NCBI GenBank assembly: GCA_016180525.1
Contig: JACPBB010000002.1
Span: forward strand, 122,517-186,516
Source of the DNA: Parcubacteria group bacterium
GTDB taxonomy: Bacteria > Patescibacteriota > Minisyncoccia > Phycocordibacterales > UBA2135
DNA: 64,000 bases
Direction: 5' to 3'
A program made the position numbers and the translations under genes. Below the pieces are notes generated by a model. That model worked only from the letters and a program-made list of their open reading frames with translations, was not told the DNA's origin and ran no database searches. Positions within the stretch are counted from its first letter, which is position 1, and every line of letters starts with the position of its first letter. Positions 9,997-26,210 of this stretch are shown in pieces.

Positions 9997-12186
9997 TTAG
10001 TGCCTTCCGTGTTTTTTATGTTTGAGGTTATCCCACTCGTCTCTGCTTATTTTTTGGTTTCCACCGCCCGCCCCTTTTTTGTCATTAAAGAAATTCGGGT
10101 CTCTTTTTTTTATGGAAAGACTTATTTTGCCGGCTTGTGCGTCAACCTCTTTTACGACAACAGGAACTCTGTCTCCCTCTTTGAGCAAGTCGCTTACGCG
10201 CTCTACTCTCCACGGCGCCAGCTCTGAAATGTGCACGAGGCCGTCGGCGTACGCGCTTATTTTAACAAACGCGCCAAAGTCAAGAATTTTTACAACTTCT
10301 CCCTCGGCTGTATCTCCCGGTCTCCATTCGCGAATAATTTCTTGCACTCGCTCTTTTGCTTTTTCCGCGGAACCATTTTTCCCAGTAATAAATACTGTTC
10401 CATCTTCATCTATATCAATCTGCGCGCCCGTTTCCTCTATAATTTTATTTATCATCTTTCCTCCCGGGCCGATAATCATACCGATTTTATCAACTGGAGA
10501 TTTCAGAGTAATGATTTTTGGAGCTGTGGGCGCAATGTCGGGACGCGGCGCAGGAATTTCTTTCTGAATGACCTCCAGAATTTGAAGACGCGCTTTTTTT
10601 GCCGCCGCAAACGCCTCCACAAGAATTTTTAGCGGAATGCCGTTTACTTTTACATCCATTTGCACCGCGGTGATGCCGTCTTTCGTGCCGGCAACTTTAA
10701 AATCCATGTCGCCATGCTCATCTTCCGGTCCCTGAATATCTGTCAGAACTTTGTACGCATTTTCATCCTTCATCATGAGCCCCATAGCAATTCCGGCGAC
10801 CGGCTTTGCGATTGGTATGCCTGCGTCCATAAGTGCGAGCGTTGCCGCGCACACGGAGCCCATTGAGGTGGAGCCGTTTGATGACATGACTTCGGAGACA
10901 ATACGAATGGTGTATGGAAATGTTTCTTTCGGAGGAATCATAGGAAGGAGCGCCTTCTCTGCAAGTGCTCCATGACCTATCATTCTCCTATTCATACCAC
11001 CAATACGCCCCGTCTCTCCCGTTGAAAATGGAGGGAAATTATAATGGTGCATGAAACGCTTTTTCCCCTTTATTTCCATTCCGTCCATGAGTTGTACGTC
11101 CTGTGGGCCGCCGAGAGTAAGAATGGAGAGCACATGCGTACCACCGCGATAGAAAATACCCGAGCCGTGAAGCACGCCTTCGGAAATCCCTCCCGCTTTC
11201 GCGTAGAGATTTCTTATTTCATCCATCTTGCGGCCGTCTGCCCGCTTGTTATTTTCTACGGCTTCTTCATGTATAGCTTCATTTATTTGTTCATCGTAAT
11301 ACGAGAGCGCAAGGGAGATATTTTCATCGGGAAGTTTTTCTACGCAAATACCTTCCCATTCTTCAGCGAGGGCCTCTATATATTTTTTCCCATCCCCGCT
11401 TAAAAGGGTCTTATGTAATTTTTTTCCGACGGTTTCAGAAAATAATTTTTTAAGAGCGGATGAAATCTCCTCTAATTCAACGGTTTGCTTTTCTTTTCCA
11501 ACCTCTTTGACAATCTTTCTCTGAAACTCCTGCAATTTTTCTATCTCTGCGATCGCGACACCAAACACTTCTTTCATGGTTTCTTCAGATGTTTCATGTG
11601 CCCCGACCTCAATCATGTTTATGTTTCCGTCTTTGCCGCATACCGTTGCGTCAAGAAGAAGATTTTCTTTCGCCCGCGTCTCATACGTCGGGTTTATTTC
11701 AAATATGTTGCCGTCTTTCAATTTTCCGATTCTCACTGCCGAAACTGGTCCTCCCCACGGAATATCTGATGTTGCAAGCGCAAGCGATGCGGCGTTTACC
11801 GCGAGAATATCCGGGTCATATTCACCGAGCGAGAGTATGGTGAGAACAACCTGCACCTCGTTTCTGATGCGCTGGTCAAAGAGCGGGCGAATGGTGCGGT
11901 CTACCACGCGGCCGGCAAGCACTGCTTCGTCTGTCGGCCGTCCTTCTCTCCGCATAAAGCGGCTTCCTAAAATTTGCCCGGCGGCGTAAAATTTTTCTTC
12001 GTAGTCAACAGTGAGCGGGAAAAAGTTAGTCCCTTCCCGTTTTCCCGAGGACATAACGGCCGTCGCAAGAACGCTCGTGTTTCCGTATGTCAAAATCACC
12101 GAGCCGTTCGCTTTTTCGGCAAGGTCGCTTACGGTTACCGTAAGTTTTTTTCCACCAATGTCGGTGGAAAATTCTTTTGTCTGCAT
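9997..12186 (-). CDS. pnp: polyribonucleotide nucleotidyltransferase (PNPase)
   Basis: The N-terminus MQTKEFSTDIGGKKLTVTVSDLAEKANGSVILTYGNTSVLATAV is followed by two RNase PH-like domains, a KH domain (IGMIIGPGGKMINKI) and an S1 domain (GEVVKILDFGAFVKI). There is a basic C-terminal tail. Confidence 0.95.
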   Translation of the reverse strand: MQTKEFSTDIGGKKLTVTVSDLAEKANGSVILTYGNTSVLATAVMSSGKREGTNFFPLTVDYEEKFYAAGQILGSRFMRREGRPTDEAVLAGRVVDRTIRPLFDQRIRNEVQVVLTILSLGEYDPDILAVNAASLALATSDIPWGGPVSAVRIGKLKDGNIFEINPTYETRAKENLLLDATVCGKDGNINMIEVGAHETSEETMKEVFGVAIAEIEKLQEFQRKIVKEVGKEKQTVELEEISSALKKLFSETVGKKLHKTLLSGDGKKYIEALAEEWEGICVEKLPDENISLALSYYDEQINEAIHEEAVENNKRADGRKMDEIRNLYAKAGGISEGVLHGSGIFYRGGTHVLSILTLGGPQDVQLMDGMEIKGKKRFMHHYNFPPFSTGETGRIGGMNRRMIGHGALAEKALLPMIPPKETFPYTIRIVSEVMSSNGSTSMGSVCAATLALMDAGIPIAKPVAGIAMGLMMKDENAYKVLTDIQGPEDEHGDMDFKVAGTKDGITAVQMDVKVNGIPLKILVEAFAAAKKARLQILEVIQKEIPAPRPDIAPTAPKIITLKSPVDKIGMIIGPGGKMINKIIEETGAQIDIDEDGTVFITGKNGSAEKAKERVQEIIREWRPGDTAEGEVVKILDFGAFVKISAYADGLVHISELAPWRVERVSDLLKEGDRVPVVVKEVDAQAGKISLSIKKRDPNFFNDKKGAGGGNQKISRDEWDNLKHKKHGRH

Positions 12187-12356: not shown

Positions 12357-12499
12357 TTAATTAGGTTTTGGGGGGTCTAGCCGTACCAACCCGACCTGAC
12401 CTCAGGGTCTTTTGAAAAACGCGCAAGGAGCCTTAACAGCGCTCCGGGCCCTTGGCGAAAATCAAGGGCCTTTCTACATAAAAAAGAGGGAGTTTGAAA

Positions 12500-12724
12500 A
12501 TGTTTGGATGCAAGAGAAAACCACCAGGAAGTCACGGACTATTCGGGCAATCAACGAAGGACAAAAAAAGAAAAGCTGGTCGCAACAGAAAAATCAAGAG
12601 AATGTTAGGGTTACAAAAGCAGCGGTTGCTGGACCTGGGGTCATCTCCAAAAAGGAGTGGTGAAGATATTTTTGATCATTGCCGCAGGCTCCCAGGTTCC
12701 TTTGAAGGAGGAAAGAGGAGATAG
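12500..12724 (+). CDS. candidate small basic protein (74 aa), alternatively non-coding
   Basis: AAGAGGGAG lies 7 nt before ATG 12500. The product MFGCKRKPPGSHGLFGQSTKDKKRKAGRNRKIKRM... is very basic. The stop is immediately followed by a plus-strand intrinsic terminator. No family recognised. Confidence 0.35.
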   Translation: MFGCKRKPPGSHGLFGQSTKDKKRKAGRNRKIKRMLGLQKQRLLDLGSSPKRSGEDIFDHCRRLPGSFEGGKRR

Positions 12725-12761: not shown

Positions 12762-13278
12762 TTTGTCCTCCTCCACCTAAAAGAAATTTTTTGGGATTTT
12801 CATCCAAGTCAAAAAAGTCGTCAGCCGCTTCTTTGAGCCGGCCGGAAGAGGATTTGCCGAATGAAACGATTTCAACCTGACACCCCTCGTTCATTTGGAG
12901 GTATTCAACGAGCGGGATGAAGTCGCCATCGCCTGAAGCGACAATGACCGTATCAAGTTTTGGAGCCATTTTTATGGCATCAATCGCGATACCGACGTCC
13001 CAGTCTGCTTTTTTTGCGCCACCATAGAAAATTTGCAGTGGTTTTGCGACTGTTTCAATTCCAGCTTTTGCAAGAGCGTCAAGAAAATTTTTCTCCTCGC
13101 CGGATTCTGTGGTAATAACATACGCGACGGCGCGTATAAGTTGCCTGCCCGCGACCACTTCTTTTAAAATCGCGCCAAAATTTACTCGCGCGCCGTATAA
13201 ATTACGTGCGCTGTGATAGAGATTTTGCGTGTCAATGAAAACACCAACGCGCTGATTTTTATGTTTTATGATGGCCAT
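12751..13278 (-). CDS. NYN/LabA-like (PIN-fold) domain protein
   Basis: VGVFIDTQNLYHSARNLYGARVNFGAIL...VASGDGDFIPLV matches the LabA/NYN (DUF88) signature. Confidence 0.7.
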   Translation of the reverse strand: MAIIKHKNQRVGVFIDTQNLYHSARNLYGARVNFGAILKEVVAGRQLIRAVAYVITTESGEEKNFLDALAKAGIETVAKPLQIFYGGAKKADWDVGIAIDAIKMAPKLDTVIVASGDGDFIPLVEYLQMNEGCQVEIVSFGKSSSGRLKEAADDFFDLDENPKKFLLGGGGQRKR

Positions 13279-13383
13279 AATAGTAGTATATAGTATTTAG
13301 TTTGTAGTATGAAGGTGTAAAACCAAAATTGTTCCGTATACACGGAACAATTTTGGTTTAATTTCGTAATTTTCGCGCTATGA

Positions 13384-13647
13384 TTATTTAAGTCCGATTT
13401 TTTTACGCAACTCGCCGTGTTTCTTTTCGTCCTTTCGTTTGAGATATCGTAAATGCGCGTGCCGATCGGCAACCATTTGCAAAAGCCCGCGTCTGGAATG
13501 GTTGTCTTTTCTATTTTTCTTTAAATGTGAAGCAAGTTCATTGATGCGCTTTGTGAGAAGCGCAACCTGAACTTCAGGAGAGCCAGTATCCCCCTCTTTT
13601 CGGGCGTATTTTTTGATAATATTTCCTTTTTGTTTCTTTGTAATCAT
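13384..13647 (-). CDS. rpsO: 30S ribosomal protein S15
   Basis: [62 protein letters not shown] is a canonical S15. Confidence 0.95.
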
Positions 13648-13689
13648 GTGTAAATATAAAAAATAAAAGAATTAAAAAATAAATAAAAA

Positions 13690-13949
13690 AGGGTGGAGGG
13701 GTGCGCCGACTAGGTTACGGCGCAGCAGGCTTCTATTTGGCGGTCCGATGCCGGCAAACAGTCCTGACCCCCCACAATGCGAAAGAAAAATAGAGGTGGT
13801 ATCACTCGGCCGCGAGTTGCCGCACAATAGCAGCAACGCGGGCATCAGCGTACTTCCAATTTTTCCGCCTAGCCTCCGTACCCATTTGGGACCCACGTAA
13901 AGCCGTTACCCGAGGCAACCCCTCGGTTCTGGTCACCGTACCACCTCCA
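13690..13949 (-). ncRNA. unassigned structured RNA or long rpsO leader (about 260 nt)
   Basis: A minus-strand promoter TTGACT-18-TATAAT (plus coords 13956-13985) gives a transcript starting GGAGGUGGUACGG. It is GC-rich with many hairpins. 5' GGAGGUGGUA pairs with a downstream UACCACCUCU. It ends in a hairpin plus UUUUUUAUUU (13681-13730), just upstream of rpsO. Not matched to tmRNA, RNase P or SRP by eye. Confidence 0.35.
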
Positions 13950-14060
13950 AAAGCAATTATATCATATATTGACGATAAAAGTCAACCCCGTTAGAAAGTC
14001 TAGCGCGATCGTGTGTTGATGCATGGTTTGCGAACTTGCCGGCGCAAGGCCGGGCCTTGT

Positions 14061-14088
14061 AATCAAAAAGCCGACAGCGGGTGTCGGC
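14061..14088 (-). terminator. intrinsic terminator (GCCGACACCCGCTGTCGGC + TTTTTGATT on minus)
   Basis: Follows the stop of the 14100-14372 gene. Confidence 0.65.
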
Positions 14089-14099
14089 TTGGAGAAAAT

Positions 14100-14372
14100 T
14101 TACTTTTTTATTCCCGCTTTCTTTATTTCGTCGGCAGCATCTCGTGCTCGTGACACATAATCAGACCAGCCACCAATGCGCGAATCTTCAGTTCCGGAAG
14201 TGCCCGGTGAATCAAAGTTCATTGTTTTTAGAAACGCCTCGTGGACCTCTGCGGCCTCATTAAAACCGTCTATTCTGTTTTGTCGCGCCTGTTGACGCTC
14301 CTCTTTCTTCTTTTCCACTTCAGTTTCATCTTTTGGACAATCCCCAACACCATCATAGACCGGCATTCCCAT
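14100..14372 (-). CDS. small hypothetical protein (90 aa, acidic/basic mix)
   Basis: An ORF with a downstream terminator. No motif recognised. Confidence 0.5.
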   Translation of the reverse strand: MGMPVYDGVGDCPKDETEVEKKKEERQQARQNRIDGFNEAAEVHEAFLKTMNFDSPGTSGTEDSRIGGWSDYVSRARDAADEIKKAGIKK

Positions 14373-14457
14373 TGTTTATCTTACCTCTCTCGCCAAATTT
14401 TCTGAAAGTAAAACTATCACAACGTATTATAAAAAGCAATGTCATGTTCACCGAGCT

Positions 14458-14548
14458 AATATTGTGCGATGTCGTCTGCGATGTTGCACAATATTAGCAG
14501 TATTACCCGACAATTTTGTTGGGTAATACATATTGTGCGACACAATAT
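14458..14548. promoter_or_regulatory. cluster of three palindromes sharing half-site ATATTGTGC (candidate operator and/or dif-like site)
   Basis: AATATTGTGC-18nt-GCACAATATT lies at 14458-14495. TATTACCCGACAAttTTGTTGGGTAATA lies at 14501-14528. ATATTGTG-CGA-CACAATAT lies at 14530-14548. All sit in the divergent intergenic region directly upstream of the Xer recombinase gene. Confidence 0.5.
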
Positions 14549-14564
14549 TTGCTATACTTTAAGC

Positions 14565-15494
14565 ATGGCAAGTAAAATCGAAACTCTTAAGAAAGAATTT
14601 CTAGAATATTTGGAAATTGAGAAGGGTAGAAGTTTAAAGACGGTTGAAAATTATGACAGATATTTAATTCGCTTTCTTGTGTTTGCGAACATTAATGCCC
14701 CGGAGAAAATTACGGACGATTTGATACGGCGGTACCGTCTGTGGCTTAATCGCCAGGAGGTTTCTCGTCCAGAGGGCGCCTCATCGCTCAAAAAGAAAAC
14801 GCAAAATTATTATTTAATAGCGCTTCGGGTATTTTTAAAATATTTAATATATCGCGGAGAGAAAACGCTTTCACCGGAGAGAATTGAACTCGCGAAAAGC
14901 GGCGAGAGAAGTCTTGACCTTATTTCTTCTGACGAACTTGAGCGATTACTAAAAGCGCCGAAAGGAAACGAATTTAAAGACCTTCGCGACAAAGCAATTC
15001 TTGAACTTTTCTTTTCTACAGGCTTGCGTGTCTCCGAGCTCTGTGCACTCTCCCGCTATATTGATATTAAAAAAGACGAACTTTCAGTCCGGGGAAAGGG
15101 CGATAAAGTACGGCTCGTGTTTCTCTCACAAAGAGCAAAAGACGCGCTCAAAAAATATTTGGATAAACGAAGAGACGTTGATGACGCACTGTTTGTTCGT
15201 ATTGCGAAAGAAACAAAAAATAAAAAACAAGAAACAAACTTACGAATTACTTCTCGCTCCGTTGAGCGGGTTATAAAACAGCATGCGATTGCCGCGGGAA
15301 TTGATAAAAAAGTAACCCCGCATATTATTCGGCACTCATTTGCCACTGACCTCTTGGAAAATGGTGCGGATTTACGGAGTGTGCAGGCGCTTTTAGGACA
15401 TGCGAACATTGCGACAACTCAAATTTACACGCACGTAACCGATAAGCATCTAAAAGATATACACAAGGCGTTTCACGGAAAACGGAGGAGATAA
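14565..15494 (+). CDS. tyrosine recombinase XerC/XerD family
   Basis: The N-terminal core-binding domain (ETLKKEFLEYLEIEKGRSLKTVENYDRYL) is followed by the C-terminal catalytic motifs HIIRHSFATDLLENGADLRSVQALLGHANIATTQIYTHV. The start is taken at MASKIE; the track ORF begins at 14469. Confidence 0.9.
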   Translation: MASKIETLKKEFLEYLEIEKGRSLKTVENYDRYLIRFLVFANINAPEKITDDLIRRYRLWLNRQEVSRPEGASSLKKKTQNYYLIALRVFLKYLIYRGEKTLSPERIELAKSGERSLDLISSDELERLLKAPKGNEFKDLRDKAILELFFSTGLRVSELCALSRYIDIKKDELSVRGKGDKVRLVFLSQRAKDALKKYLDKRRDVDDALFVRIAKETKNKKQETNLRITSRSVERVIKQHAIAAGIDKKVTPHIIRHSFATDLLENGADLRSVQALLGHANIATTQIYTHVTDKHLKDIHKAFHGKRRR

Positions 15495-23129: not shown

Positions 23130-23568
23130 AGAGAGAGTTGGGGGGTTTGGGTTCCAAGGTACCCCCCGAACCTCGTTGCCGTGTCGCTTTAAGCGCCGTG
23201 AGGCACTGTTAGGCGGCAGCGGCTAGCCCGAATCCCTGCTCCGGTGCCATCGCGGCGAAGAAATTGCCGTGACGTACATCAGTAGGGATCCGGACCGTTC
23301 CGTTATCGTTGACATTTTGGTCAGTTAGATCTCTTTTACTCTGCCCGAAGGCAGGGTGTGCTCGCTTTTGTCACGCGCGTCGATCCTATTTCGCCCCCCT
23401 CAGGAATGCATACAGGTGGGACTTGAACCACACTTCAGCCGTTTTGGGCTTACCGGAGCGTGAAGCTCCCGCATTTCCCCTTTCGGGCTGTATGCATTCT
23501 TGGTGGAGGCGCCGGGTACTGCCCCCGGGTCTGCGACGTCTATTCTGCAGGCACGAGCTCAACCAACC
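23130..23568 (-). ncRNA. ssrA: tmRNA (ssrA), circularly permuted two-piece gene arrangement
   Basis: On the minus strand an extended -10 TGATATAAT promoter (plus 23576-23584) is followed by an acceptor piece ending ...CCGGGGGCAGUACCCGG CGCCUCC A CCA (CCA at plus 23501-23503). Next comes an intervening element closed by a perfect 12-bp stem GAAUGCAUACAG/CUGUAUGCAUUC (plus 23402-23500) that contains a T-arm-like GUGGUUCAAGUCCCAC. The coding piece starts GGGGGCGAAAUAGGAUCGACG (plus 23399 downward). 5' GGGGGCG pairs with 3' CGCCUCC, giving a G3:U70 wobble. GGAUCGACG matches the conserved tmRNA GGAUUCGACGGG. An in-frame tag ORF GCA CCG GAG CAG GGA UUC GGG CUA GCC GCU GCC GCC UAA encodes (A)PEQGFGLAAAA (plus 23209-23247). 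The 3' end of the coding piece (GGCAACGAG) pairs with the 5' end of the acceptor piece (CUCGUGCC). Confidence 0.7.
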
Positions 23569-23693
23569 GCTATCTATTATATCAGATTTTATTTAAAATG
23601 CAAGCGTTTAAACCTAAATTTAAGCGGCTTATTGAAGAAAAAGAAAAAGCATAGTAGAATTCCTATATTCAATCTTCTTGTTTCCGTAGTTTT

Positions 23694-23731: not shown

Positions 23732-23802
23732 GCGGGTATGGTTCAATGGTAGAACATCTGGTTGCCAATCAGATGATGGGAGTTCGATTCTCCCTACCCG
23801 CA
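23732..23802 (+). tRNA. tRNA-Gly (anticodon GCC)
   Basis: Acceptor GCGGGTA/TACCCGC, anticodon loop TTGCCAA, T-loop TTCGATT. Confidence 0.85.
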
Positions 23803-23803
23803 T

Positions 23804-24100
23804 ATGGAAAAACTTCCTAAAAACCCCACTGGTGCAGAAATACAAGAATTCGTCTCTAAACAAGAAGCAGAGTTAAAAGAAAACCTGAATTCACTTGTTG
23901 AACTTTTTAATTTAAAAGTTTTAAGAGAGGGGCACGATTTTTCTAGCCCAATATTAGTTGTTGAAGCGGCTGATGGGGGTGAGGCAAAAATAGGATTTCC
24001 AGATGGCCTTAAATATCCTCCCTGTGCAACTAAAAAAATAAAAGATGTTCCAATGTCAGTGTATGGCCATGGTCCTTGGGCATACCACATAGATATTTAA
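23804..24100 (+). CDS. small hypothetical protein (98 aa)
   Basis: The ORF starts 2 nt after the tRNA. No motif recognised. Confidence 0.4.
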   Translation: MEKLPKNPTGAEIQEFVSKQEAELKENLNSLVELFNLKVLREGHDFSSPILVVEAADGGEAKIGFPDGLKYPPCATKKIKDVPMSVYGHGPWAYHIDI

Positions 24101-24375
24101 ACAAATTTTTATAGTTTTACTGAAAAATAAGGATAGATTGTCAGAAAACTGTGCATAACTATGTGGATATGTGTATAAAGGACAAAAAATGTCCTTTATA
24201 TTTTATAAGAATAGGCTTGTCGCTGCGTAATCTCAAACTTTCGCAAGGTAAGGGTTGGAAATACAGCTAAGCATTATTCTTATAAAAGTTTCACATGAAA
24301 CATTTACAAAGAATAACTATTATTTTTTAAAAGTTTTGCTTATTATTTGGAATTACTTCACACAATTAATGTTTC

Positions 24376-24801
24376 ATGAATAACGCAAAAAATCATAAAA
24401 AACCTGAACATTTAAAAATAGGAGCTTTAGGAGAAGATATTACCTGCCGCTTTTTAAAACAAAAAGGATTCAAAATAATTGAAAGAAATTATAGAAAGAA
24501 ATGGGGGGAGATAGATGTTGTTGCAGAAAAAGAAAATATTTTACGTTTTGTTGAAGTAAAATCTGTTTCACGAATAACGTCAGATGAAAATGTTATTCAT
24601 GAAACATCTGAAAGGAGATATCGTCCAGAAGACATGGTGCACCCATGGAAAGTAAAAAGGATGCAAAGAGTAATTCAGTCATATCTTTTTGAAAAAAATA
24701 TTTCAGAATATATAAAATGGCAGTTTGATATAGTTGCTGTTGAGATTGATCAAAATAGAAAAACCGCAAAAGTGCGTTTTATTGAAAATATGATATTGTA
24801 A
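24376..24801 (+). CDS. yraN: UPF0102/YraN-family putative endonuclease
   Basis: LGEDITCRFLKQKGFKIIERNYRKKWGEIDVVAEKENILRFVEVKS is typical of the YraN family. Confidence 0.7.
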   Translation: MNNAKNHKKPEHLKIGALGEDITCRFLKQKGFKIIERNYRKKWGEIDVVAEKENILRFVEVKSVSRITSDENVIHETSERRYRPEDMVHPWKVKRMQRVIQSYLFEKNISEYIKWQFDIVAVEIDQNRKTAKVRFIENMIL

Positions 24802-24809
24802 TAAAAAGA

Positions 24810-24852
24810 TTGTTTCATGAATAACACTTTAAAAATGTTATTCATGAAACAA
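24810..24852. repeat. perfect 17-bp inverted repeat (TTGTTTCATGAATAACA-9nt-TGTTATTCATGAAACAA)
   Basis: The left arm repeats the 15-mer TGTTTCATGAATAAC that overlaps the yraN start codon (24370-24384). Confidence 0.6.
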
Positions 24853-24984
24853 TGAGCGGAAATGCTCAATAAATATATTTTAAAAGACAAAACAACGTGT
24901 CTTTTTGCTTGTCTTTTACGGGCTGTAGCCCCGACGCAAAGTCGGGGTCCCGACCTCGGGGCGCGTCGGGATATATAAAATAAG

Positions 24985-25055
24985 CGGGCTGTAGTATATC
25001 GGCAGTACACATGCATGGGGTGCATGTAGGCCGGGTTCGATTCCCGGCAGCCCGA
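24985..25055 (+). tRNA. tRNA-Pro (anticodon GGG)
   Basis: Acceptor CGGGCTG/CAGCCCG, anticodon loop ATGGGGT, T-loop TTCGATT. It is preceded at 24919-24928 by a duplicate of its first 10 nt plus two GC hairpins (24929-24971). Confidence 0.8.
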
Positions 25056-25168
25056 CTGAGTGAAGCGAAGGAGGGATGATTGCAGTTGAGGAGCGGAAGC
25101 GACGAAATACTGAGGTCAATAGACCGAATGTGCCCGAACGGAAATAAAAAAAACATGTGCATTAAAAA

Positions 25169-25239
25169 CGGGCTGTAGTATACCGGTAGTACGCACGCTT
25201 CGGGAGCGTGTAGATCGGGTTCGATTCCCGACAGCCCGA
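25169..25239 (+). tRNA. tRNA-Pro (anticodon CGG)
   Basis: Acceptor CGGGCTG/CAGCCCG, anticodon loop TTCGGGA, T-loop TTCGATT. Confidence 0.85.
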
Positions 25240-25241
25240 TT

Positions 25242-25478
25242 ATGGAAAATGATAAAAATTTGAAAATTGAGGTGAGGGATAAAATGATAACGTATCTGAC
25301 TGCGGCATTTGGACTTGTGGTGGGTTTGGCGTGGAATGATGCGGTAAAAGCGTTTATTGAGTTTGTATTTCCTATTCAAAAAGATTCGCTGTGGGCGAAG
25401 TTTGGATACGCATTTGTTCTCACTGTTGTTTTTGTTTTGATTACCATATATATTGCTCGTTTGTTTAAAAAACAGTAG
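25242..25478 (+). CDS. small membrane protein (78 aa, 2 TM)
   Basis: Hydrophobic segments ITYLTAAFGLVVGLAW and FGYAFVLTVVFVLITIYIA. Confidence 0.5.
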   Translation: MENDKNLKIEVRDKMITYLTAAFGLVVGLAWNDAVKAFIEFVFPIQKDSLWAKFGYAFVLTVVFVLITIYIARLFKKQ

Positions 25479-25493
25479 TATTGAAAGACAGAA

Positions 25494-26012
25494 ATGATAT
25501 TAACGAAAAGCAAAATTTTAGAAGAGATTAAAAAAGGCTCAGTGAAAATTGAGCCATTTTCTGAAGAACAAGTGACTGCTGCCTCTATAGATTTGCATTT
25601 AGGCAATGTGTTTAAGGTACTGGTTAAAGCAGGCCACTCTATTATTGTAGATAATGAACTTACTGACGCAGAACAATATGCAAAACCAATTCATCTCAAA
25701 GAAGAAGAGACAATAACGATACAGCCTAATGAAACGATTCTCGGCGTTACAAAAGAAAAGGTAACGTTTCCGTCTGACATCGCGGGGAGAATAGAAGGAA
25801 GGTCGCGGTTCGCGCGCATCGGGCTTGGGGTGCACATTACTTCCGGCTTTATTCATCCGGGCGCGGACAACATACAAGTGCTTGAAATTTCAAACATGTC
25901 GCCGAATGAACTGGTGTTAAAACCAGGGCTTAAAATTTGCCAGATTGTGCTTGAGCGCTGCGAAGGGGGAGAGACATACGCGGGAAAATTTCAAGGACAG
26001 ACCGAACCGTAA
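25494..26012 (+). CDS. dcd: dCTP deaminase (dUTPase-fold)
   Basis: MILTKSKILEEIKKGSVKIEPFSEEQVTAASIDLHLG...GRIEGRSRFARIGLGVHITSGFIHPGA is characteristic of the Dcd family. Confidence 0.85.
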   Translation: MILTKSKILEEIKKGSVKIEPFSEEQVTAASIDLHLGNVFKVLVKAGHSIIVDNELTDAEQYAKPIHLKEEETITIQPNETILGVTKEKVTFPSDIAGRIEGRSRFARIGLGVHITSGFIHPGADNIQVLEISNMSPNELVLKPGLKICQIVLERCEGGETYAGKFQGQTEP

Positions 26013-26050
26013 GCTAGCTATTAGGAGTTAGTTTAATTTCAATATAATCA

Positions 26051-26124
26051 TGGGCGGCTAGCTCAGCTGGTTAGAGCGCTGTCCTCACACGACAGAGGTC
26101 ACAAGTTCGAATCTTGTGCCGCCC
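26051..26124 (+). tRNA. tRNA-Val (anticodon CAC)
   Basis: Acceptor GGGCGGC/GCCGCCC, anticodon loop CTCACAC, T-loop TTCGAAT. Confidence 0.85.
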
Positions 26125-26129
26125 ATTTA

Positions 26130-26200
26130 GGGGCCTATAGTAAAGTGGTATTACGCGGCATTCGCATTGCCGAGTCCGGGGTTCGACTCCCCGTAGGTCC
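26130..26200 (+). tRNA. tRNA-Ala (anticodon CGC)
   Basis: The acceptor GGGCCTA/TAGGTCC has a G3:U70 pair. Anticodon loop TTCGCAT, T-loop TTCGACT. It is followed by CCC. Confidence 0.8.
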
Positions 26201-26210
26201 ACCCAAAAAA

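Follow-up and report, generated by a model that had tools for sequence, protein, structure and literature searches.

Our analysis of the window, the 64,000-nucleotide stretch of Parcubacteria DNA under study, found a real structured RNA with a conserved structure directly upstream of rpsO, the gene for ribosomal protein S15. The element, here called domain 1, spans 157 nt of the minus strand (13792..13948) and is backed by homologues in other lineages and by covariation. Judged by sequence and covariance-model comparisons, it is a new structured-RNA family with a narrow distribution in Parcubacteria. To our knowledge, hardly any regulatory RNAs are known from the Candidate Phyla Radiation (CPR), whose members are not culturable and have tiny genomes, and the element would give this group a new RNA family with clear covariation. 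An earlier note on this DNA had pointed to an unassigned structured RNA behind a strong promoter and directly upstream of rpsO, a view that both the covariation and the negative result with Rfam support. The same note had treated the transcript as a single unit of about 260 nt; it consists instead of two modules, of which just the 157-nt 5' domain is conserved, the 3' hairpin (domain 2) being specific to the lineage of the window. As for function, we tentatively favour a role of domain 1 as an rpsO leader or attenuator that would gate transcriptional read-through into the gene.

A conserved fold behind an rpsO-type promoter

The PNPase of the window (12186..9997) shares 60-79% identity with PNPases from metagenome-assembled genomes of Patescibacteria/Parcubacteria (Paceibacterota), and the gene order of the locus, with an xer-type recombinase on the opposite strand, rpsO, a NYN-domain gene and pnp, recurs in more than 40 of 80 related loci that were retrieved. 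The rpsO gene itself (13384..13647, minus strand; 87 aa, PF00312) lacks a Shine-Dalgarno sequence. In the window the xer-rpsO spacer is widened to about 820-920 nt (the start codon of xer is uncertain) and contains a 90-aa ORF, the ORF's own terminator and then the structured RNA. This ORF (14100..14372, minus strand), which encodes an acidic product without Pfam match and falls in only two clusters among 5.8 billion proteins, is a neighbour outside the element. It is present in the window and at loci L087, L095 and L122, and absent from L121 and L002; because L122 has the ORF without the RNA and L121 the RNA without the ORF, a link between the two was ruled out. The intrinsic terminator of the ORF, detected by a terminator scan at 14068..14090 of the minus strand, shields the promoter of the RNA from upstream transcription.

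That promoter is of the sigma-70 type (13956..13985, minus strand) and comprises TTGACT at 13985-13980, an 18-nt spacer and TATAAT at 13961-13956, with an extended TG at 13964-13963. The near-consensus minus-strand promoter of the earlier note is thereby confirmed, since 11 of the 12 consensus positions match in addition to the TG and no other site between 13000 and 14600 is as good; the transcript that it launches is GC-rich, as noted there. The predicted transcript start is G13948, the first base of the 5' strand (GGAGGUGGUA) of the closing helix P1, and since P1 starts 6-8 nt past the -10 box in every copy of the RNA, the 5' end of the RNA should coincide with the first base of this helix. 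The same TTGACTTTTT...TGATATAAT promoter stands ahead of every other copy (L087, L095 and both copies, A and B, of L121). In relatives without the RNA, rpsO is leaderless or has a 14-17-nt leader and lies directly behind TTGCA/TTGAC-17-TGnTATAAT. Two of these relatives, L002 and L120, have a homologous promoter 14-17 nt before the rpsO ATG, and its resemblance to the promoter of the RNA extends well past the consensus hexamers. The RNA therefore lies, as an insertion, between the rpsO promoter and the start codon, in front of a gene whose counterparts in relatives are leaderless. In the lineage of the window mRNAs seem to be leaderless as a rule: a Shine-Dalgarno-like motif precedes only 4 of the 39 long ORFs of the window, many of these ORFs start 5-9 nt downstream of a TATAAT-like box, and rpsO begins 6-8 nt after TGnTATAAT in more than 10 relatives among the upstream regions inspected (L003-L019, L098, L099).

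Domain 1 is closed by the 10-bp helix P1, in which GGAGGUGGUA (13948-13939) pairs with UACCACCUCU (13801-13792), all on the minus strand like the rest of the fold. The long-range complementarity of these two segments had been recognised in the earlier note and stands; the domain that they close measures 157 nt and not the roughly 190 nt proposed there. P1 is continued by the 4-bp P1b (13938-13935 with 13810-13807) across a 5-nt bulge of the form A-N-N-R-A (13806-13802). A three-way junction follows, with long conserved single strands, of which J2/3 reads G.AAC.G.UU.AC; it bears the hypervariable hairpin P2 (13926-13921 with 13915-13910) and the 7-bp P3 (13897-13891 with 13817-13811). P3 leads into a near-perfect four-way junction, with one unpaired nucleotide, where it meets P4 (13890-13888 with 13883-13881; 2-3 bp across copies), P5 and P6 (13835-13830 with 13823-13818; 5-6 bp across copies). 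The P5 arm is built of three segments, P5, P5b and P5c (13879-13866 with 13850-13836), has a UA/GAU internal loop and ends in a conserved GAAAAA...AGUA hairpin resembling a loop E motif (GAA/AGUA).

The evidence that this fold has been under selection is comparative. In an alignment (A6) of five homologous copies with 46 base pairs, 91.2% of the pair cells hold standard pairs; sliding the partners by 1-3 columns lowers this share to 32-47%. Changes on both sides of the pair are found in 13 of the 46 pairs. At least one such double-changed pair occurs in P1 and in each of P2 to P6, and the 4-bp P1b alone shows no change. In 500 column shuffles the observed values were never reached. The RNA is 66-87% identical between lineages that are old, as the third codon positions of their rpsO genes are only 48-65% identical, and it follows that the fold of domain 1 has been kept by selection. 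The folding energy of the whole 269 nt is modest evidence by itself (z = -1.71, with 9 of 200 shuffles equally stable), that of domain 1 alone is more distinct (z = -2.63, 0 of 200 shuffles), and it is the comparative evidence that is decisive. The covariation for which the earlier note had looked to relatives is thus present among the five copies, although the RNA is no general feature of the region upstream of rpsO, being absent from more than 90 related rpsO loci.

An internal direct repeat was also observed in the RNA, at 13869-13882 and 13929-13942 (GGUACGGAGGCUAG and GGUACGGUGACCAG on the RNA strand). The 3' strand of P1/P1b could in principle pair with either copy of the repeat, which is probably no switch, since it is not conserved in L121.

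Distribution and comparison with known families

Homologues of domain 1 were found in three other Parcubacteria lineages, represented by L087, L095 and L121, the last with two tandem copies. All five copies, including that of the window, lie directly upstream of rpsO, on the rpsO strand and behind an rpsO-type promoter. In L087, which was reached through the single distant homologue (P0002) of the 90-aa ORF, there is a clear counterpart of domain 1 but none of domain 2; it stands behind the same promoter and ahead of U7 and rpsO. The members of the window's S15 cluster yielded the third variant, found alike in L095, L096 and L097, as well as L094, and L121 was reached through a more distant S15 (82% identical). 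In L121 (217-690) promoter and RNA are duplicated in tandem, each copy standing behind its own TTGACTTTTT...TATAAT promoter. The two copies share an identical 3' stretch of approximately 70 nt, which reaches to a 10-N scaffold gap, but diverge in their 5' halves (in P1, P2 and the promoter spacer); a canonical terminator follows copy A, between the two copies. L094 (GCA_016181775.1, JACOYN010000025.1; 2591-3004) carries an RNA of the L095 type without the promoter and the 5' strand of P1; the stop codon and terminator of the upstream ORF are also missing, and a 137-aa ORF runs into the RNA. L094 represents a natural deletion variant or else a misassembly; the same sample set also yielded the intact version.

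Searches for further copies gave a consistent picture. Close S15 loci without the RNA include L098, L099, L100, L120, L122, the marine group of L002 and L123-L130, and all 80 genome loci; nhmmer and blastn comparisons of the element with the 80 related pnp/rpsO loci gave no match, nor did a covariance-model search of them. When the S15 of the window and the 90-aa ORF were looked up as exact proteins, only 100%-identical contigs were retrieved. When about 1.4 Mb of related loci was searched with two covariance models (R1 and R2), only the five copies and the truncated one of L094 were recovered, and there is no further copy within the 64-kb window. A first pattern scan of JGI metagenomes, which was too strict, had 0 matches; a second one gave 19 loci, all of them chance matches according to the covariance model. 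Four pattern scans of viral contigs likewise produced chance matches only, and blastn found none in phages and plasmids. The concatenated six-frame translation of the RNA had no match at E<=10 among 5.8e9 proteins, a search in which short matches cannot reach significance. Because the RNA is absent from most of the close S15 loci searched, we regard it as rare and patchy, occurring in two S15 sub-lineages.

No described family accounts for the RNA. The Rfam scan called for in the earlier note was performed with Rfam 15, whose 4227 models include riboswitches, ribozymes, 6S, SRP, RNase P, Y RNA and T-box; no family matched the RNA at gathering scores in a scan of the whole window, nor at E<=10 on 801 nt and on the 168-nt core, and the three homologous loci gave nothing relevant. 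This agrees with the impression, formed there by eye, that the hallmarks of RNase P, SRP and tmRNA are lacking. The E. coli rpsO leader model RF00114, with a gathering score of 39.5 bits, does not match the window at E<=10 and reaches 19.1 bits in L095. The L095 signal was discarded, as it is carried by the rpsO coding start and the P6 hairpin and skips the pseudoknot segment. ARAGORN found no tRNA or tmRNA gene in the RNA, although the junction of P3, P4, P5 and P6 has a cloverleaf-like topology. Since every covariance-model test failed, the RNA belongs to no described family.

Several other identities were considered and rejected. A 44-aa ORF with a GTG start (13936..13802), behind GGAGGUG, does not behave as a small protein gene: its frame is not conserved among the homologues, two compensating 1-nt indels shift it where the nucleotides are highly conserved, and the amino acid is the same at only 9 of the first 26 codons. 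The frame of a 74-aa ORF within the RNA is not conserved either. Four resemblances noticed by eye did not hold. For a K-turn at the P1/P1b bulge, a T-box in GGUGGUAC and SRP helix 8 in GGCUAGGCGGAA, the invariant positions or the element order that would be needed are missing or not conserved; the hammerhead core words CUGAUG and GAAA occur in the wrong order and are not invariant.

A G.U/G-C step is the motif by which S15 recognises helix 22 of 16S rRNA. In the window, L087 and L095 such a step occurs in P3, in the 16S orientation and one pair from the four-way junction; in L121 it is replaced by G.G/U-A, and its spacing differs from that of 16S h22. Local alignment to E. coli 16S rRNA did not score above shuffles, in a weak test with an approximate query sequence.

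Among the known rpsO leaders, that of E. coli is a pseudoknot (RF00114) embracing the Shine-Dalgarno sequence and the AUG, those of Geobacillus and Thermus are three-way junctions, and there are also S15-Flavobacteria, S15-Halobacteria and S15-Methanomicrobia motifs. Further leader types have been described in Alphaproteobacteria, Actinobacteria and Chlamydia (PMC4137082). Domain 1 resembles the S15 leaders in its position in the 5' region of rpsO on the coding strand, which applies to all five copies, in its restriction to few lineages and its evolutionary lability, and in being built on multi-helix junctions with a G.U/G-C step beside the junction in three of the four lineages. It differs from them in its combination of a three-way and a four-way junction, in the absence of any covariance-model match, and in size: the earlier note had judged the element far longer than known S15 leaders, and the 157 nt of domain 1 are already two to three times longer. 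Moreover, an S15 leader would be expected to overlap or trap the translation start, whereas domain 1 encloses neither the ribosome-binding site nor the start codon.

Terminator-like signals and possible roles of the RNA

Right after the 3' strand of P1 lies a U5 run (13786..13790, minus strand), which together with P1 resembles an intrinsic terminator. Runs of U6-U7 occupy the equivalent place in L087 (U7), L095 (U6) and copy B of L121, and in all four complete copies a GC-rich P1 of 9-11 bp is followed within 0-3 nt by U5-U7. P1 thus has the GC-rich helix and the U-tract of an intrinsic terminator, and the "loop" is a folded domain of 137 nt. In the window, domain 2 follows, a three-way-junction hairpin (13691..13775, minus strand) with a folding energy of -40 kcal/mol; it is closed by GUGGGGGG/CCCCUCCAC, a stem of 8 G/C pairs, after which comes the U6 tract that forms its terminator tail (13685..13690, minus strand), 37 nt before the rpsO ATG (13647). 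This is the hairpin with a U-run just before rpsO seen in the earlier note. Domain 2 is confined to the lineage of the window, with no counterpart in L087, L095 or L121; it folds alike with or without domain 1 or the 5' strand of P1, and in the folding models it is apparently a strong constitutive terminator. A simple terminator scanner listed neither P1 nor domain 2, because their "loops" exceed 8 nt. A search for anti-P1 or antiterminator pairings found no conserved alternative of at least 5 bp that sequesters either strand of P1, and when an antiterminator or a pseudoknot was sought by covariation, just 4-5-bp G.U-rich alternatives appeared.

The distance from P1 to the rpsO ATG is 10 nt in L095, 21 nt in L121, 31 nt in L087 and 145 nt in the window, a variation that excludes a conserved steric block of translation. 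In L095-L097 the four nucleotides ACAU alone lie between the U6 run and the rpsO ATG; this gap has no room for a promoter, and rpsO can be transcribed there only through the RNA. To judge by the layout of the loci, co-transcription of the RNA and rpsO is obligatory in L095 and only probable in the window. In the window a TATATT (13653..13658, minus strand), located 5 nt before the rpsO ATG and lacking a -35 box and TG, may be a weak -10 box of the leaderless type, although the promoter scan of 13000-14600 did not pick it up. In L121 an exact TATAAT precedes the rpsO ATG by 7 nt, also without -35 and TG, and both boxes sit at the leaderless spacing that is common in the genome of the window.

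The reading that we tentatively favour is an attenuator. Transcription would start at the first base of P1, and once the 3' strand of P1 emerges, the GC-rich helix of 9-11 bp and the U5-U7 tract could form a structure like an intrinsic terminator. The polymerase would then either stop, freeing a discrete RNA of about 165 nt, or read through into rpsO, so that S15 synthesis would be gated at the level of transcription; termination would presumably be partial or regulated. In the lineage of the window the additional three-way-junction terminator, domain 2, would reinforce the stop. If domain 1 is such a leader, feedback by S15 would be the most probable signal: excess free S15 would bind the folded junction region, stabilise the fold including P1 and lower read-through. 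This suggestion is made by analogy with the many narrow S15-binding leaders. At least seven such leaders, unrelated and narrowly distributed, have been described (PMC4137082, PMC4684408), and sequence space is rich in S15 binders (PMC5100602). Taken overall, S15 as the ligand is doubtful. The G.U/G-C step beside the junction in P3 speaks for it in three of the four lineages, and the G.G/U-A step of L121 and the lack of similarity to the approximate E. coli 16S sequence, weak as that test is, speak against it. Should domain 1 prove to be an S15-responsive attenuator, it would be an independent and unusually large solution in the best-studied case of convergent RNA-protein regulation. It would in that case also be the first among S15 leaders to work by termination, the helix that closes the aptamer being itself the terminator stem.

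More generally, an attenuating leader is consistent with selection on the structure (the 13 double changes in 46 pairs, and the higher identity of the RNA relative to third codon positions), with the location of all five copies between an rpsO-type promoter and rpsO on the same strand, with the anatomy of P1 and U5-U7 in all complete copies, and with the obligatory co-transcription in L095-L097. Attenuation under the control of ribosomal proteins has precedents in L20/infC of Bacillus subtilis and in the S10 leader with L4. Like the leaders of B. subtilis L20/infC, L10 and E. coli S10/L4, domain 1 combines a structured leader with a terminator before a ribosomal-protein gene, and these systems, in which read-through sets expression, are together with OFF riboswitches the closest working analogy. 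Their terminator is a separate hairpin with a competing antiterminator, whereas in domain 1 the closing helix of the whole 157-nt domain would itself be the terminator stem, and no antiterminator was found. The absence of a conserved anti-P1 pairing leaves switchable termination unsupported and weakens the attenuator reading. The known S15 leaders exert translational control, while the helix and U-tract at the end of domain 1 point to transcriptional control, and with its 157 nt and two junctions domain 1 is two to three times more complex than they are. In the window, with its domain 2 terminator, and in L121, the -10-like boxes before the ATG suggest that rpsO may have its own transcription, which would make a role in cis unnecessary there, and the layout of L121, with two promoters and a terminator after copy A, looks like that of stand-alone RNA genes.

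The last point leads to a possible, somewhat less probable reading, in which domain 1 is a stand-alone gene for a small RNA that acts in trans, binding for example a protein or the ribosome, and that came to lie behind the rpsO promoter and captured it. P1 and the U-tract would then be its own terminator, and rpsO would depend on a leaderless promoter formed anew or on incidental read-through. A start exactly at P1, paired 5' and 3' ends and a U-tract are the anatomy of stable small-RNA genes, and a strong promoter, a terminal closing helix, a 3' U-tract and a high GC content in an AT-rich genome are shared with 6S, 4.5S/SRP, RNase P RNA and Y RNA/YrlA. Domain 1 is multi-branched, unlike the 6S and SRP rods, and matches none of these RNAs in covariance-model or ARAGORN searches. 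The structure is far more elaborate than that of known S15 leaders and was kept by compensatory changes in the lineage of the window, where a role in cis is least needed. There the strong domain 2 terminator is followed by an AT-rich stretch with the TATATT 5 nt before the ATG; in L121 each copy has its own promoter, copy A ends in a canonical terminator and TATAAT lies 7 nt before the rpsO ATG; and the genome of the window generally uses leaderless starts behind a bare -10 box. However, a promoter between the RNA and rpsO is impossible in L095-L097, and the -10-like boxes elsewhere lack -35 and TG and stand in DNA of about 25% GC, where hexamers arise by chance. Copies are found only before rpsO, with none elsewhere in the 64 kb or in about 1.4 Mb of related loci. 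The RNA is also absent from most close relatives and so is not essential, unlike the housekeeping RNAs, and its loss argues against a housekeeping role. If it did act in trans, it would be a new CPR-specific class of non-coding RNA.

It is improbable that domain 1 is a leader sensing an input other than S15, such as a small molecule, PNPase, the NYN-domain nuclease or a growth-rate signal, or a processing or stability module that would be cut off so as to leave a near-leaderless rpsO mRNA. Conserved unpaired segments like J2/3 (AAC.G.UU.AC), the GAAAAA...AGUA loop and the UA/GAU internal loop are typical of aptamers, and an aptamer-like domain closed by P1 with a termination signal directly after it is the layout of an OFF riboswitch. 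As with Listeria SreA/SreB, termination would release a discrete structured RNA, which might also act in trans. But no riboswitch or ribozyme family in Rfam matches, the downstream gene encodes a ribosomal protein and is not metabolic, and no metabolic logic ties a small molecule to rpsO. Processing would make sense in that a genome translating mostly leaderless mRNAs may need to remove a long leader without Shine-Dalgarno sequence; however, no self-cleaving-ribozyme core was recognised, CUGAUG and GAAA being misordered for a hammerhead and not invariant. Very improbable, finally, is a non-functional insertion, either a mobile-element relic or a MITE with terminal inverted repeats, or a gene for the 44-aa product. 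In its favour, the 10-bp inverted repeat at the ends of the domain might represent transposon ends, the copies are patchily distributed, and in the window an ORF with a Shine-Dalgarno-like sequence ahead of it does exist. Covariation largely refutes an insertion, with compensatory changes in seven internal helices, and a mobile repeat was rejected on the same grounds and because, apart from the tandem in L121, each locus has a single copy, with none elsewhere in the window or in phages, plasmids and viral contigs. The 44-aa ORF is not conserved as a protein, and Shine-Dalgarno sequences are hardly used in this genome.

Cutting across these readings is the more far-reaching idea that domain 1, going beyond an S15 feedback operator, founds a new class of complex non-coding RNA specific to Parcubacteria (CPR). 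We consider it unlikely in either of its two versions, one being a trans-acting role at the translation apparatus, where it might bind S15 or the ribosome, and the other a leader that recruits ribosomes independently of Shine-Dalgarno sequences, or is processed, amid leaderless mRNAs.

Other features of the locus

Some observations on the surrounding DNA are independent of the RNA. The NYN-domain gene (PF01936; 12751-13278, minus strand) lies between rpsO and pnp in more than 50 related Parcubacteria loci, and its product is a putative RNase inside an RNA-turnover operon. The 560-nt spacer between this gene and pnp contains a very basic 83-aa ORF on the opposite strand (12412-12663, plus strand); L094 has a conserved counterpart of this spacer, in which a 115-aa gene was called. 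At the 5' end of the xer-type recombinase gene there is a 20-nt inverted repeat (14455-14498; GCTAATATTGTGCGATGTCG / CGATGTTGCACAATATTAGC), 85% complementary, which could be an operator or a dif-like site. One of its arms resembles P6 at 12 of 14 positions, probably by chance. A TTGTGCGAC(A) motif beside xer is also present in L002, L007, L009, L017, L019 and L121. Further along the window, at 23136-23607 of the minus strand, lies a two-piece (circularly permuted) tmRNA gene, which scores 89.9 bits with the Rfam alpha_tmRNA model and 75.9 bits with tmRNA_permuted, and several tRNA genes are found near it (23732-26201).
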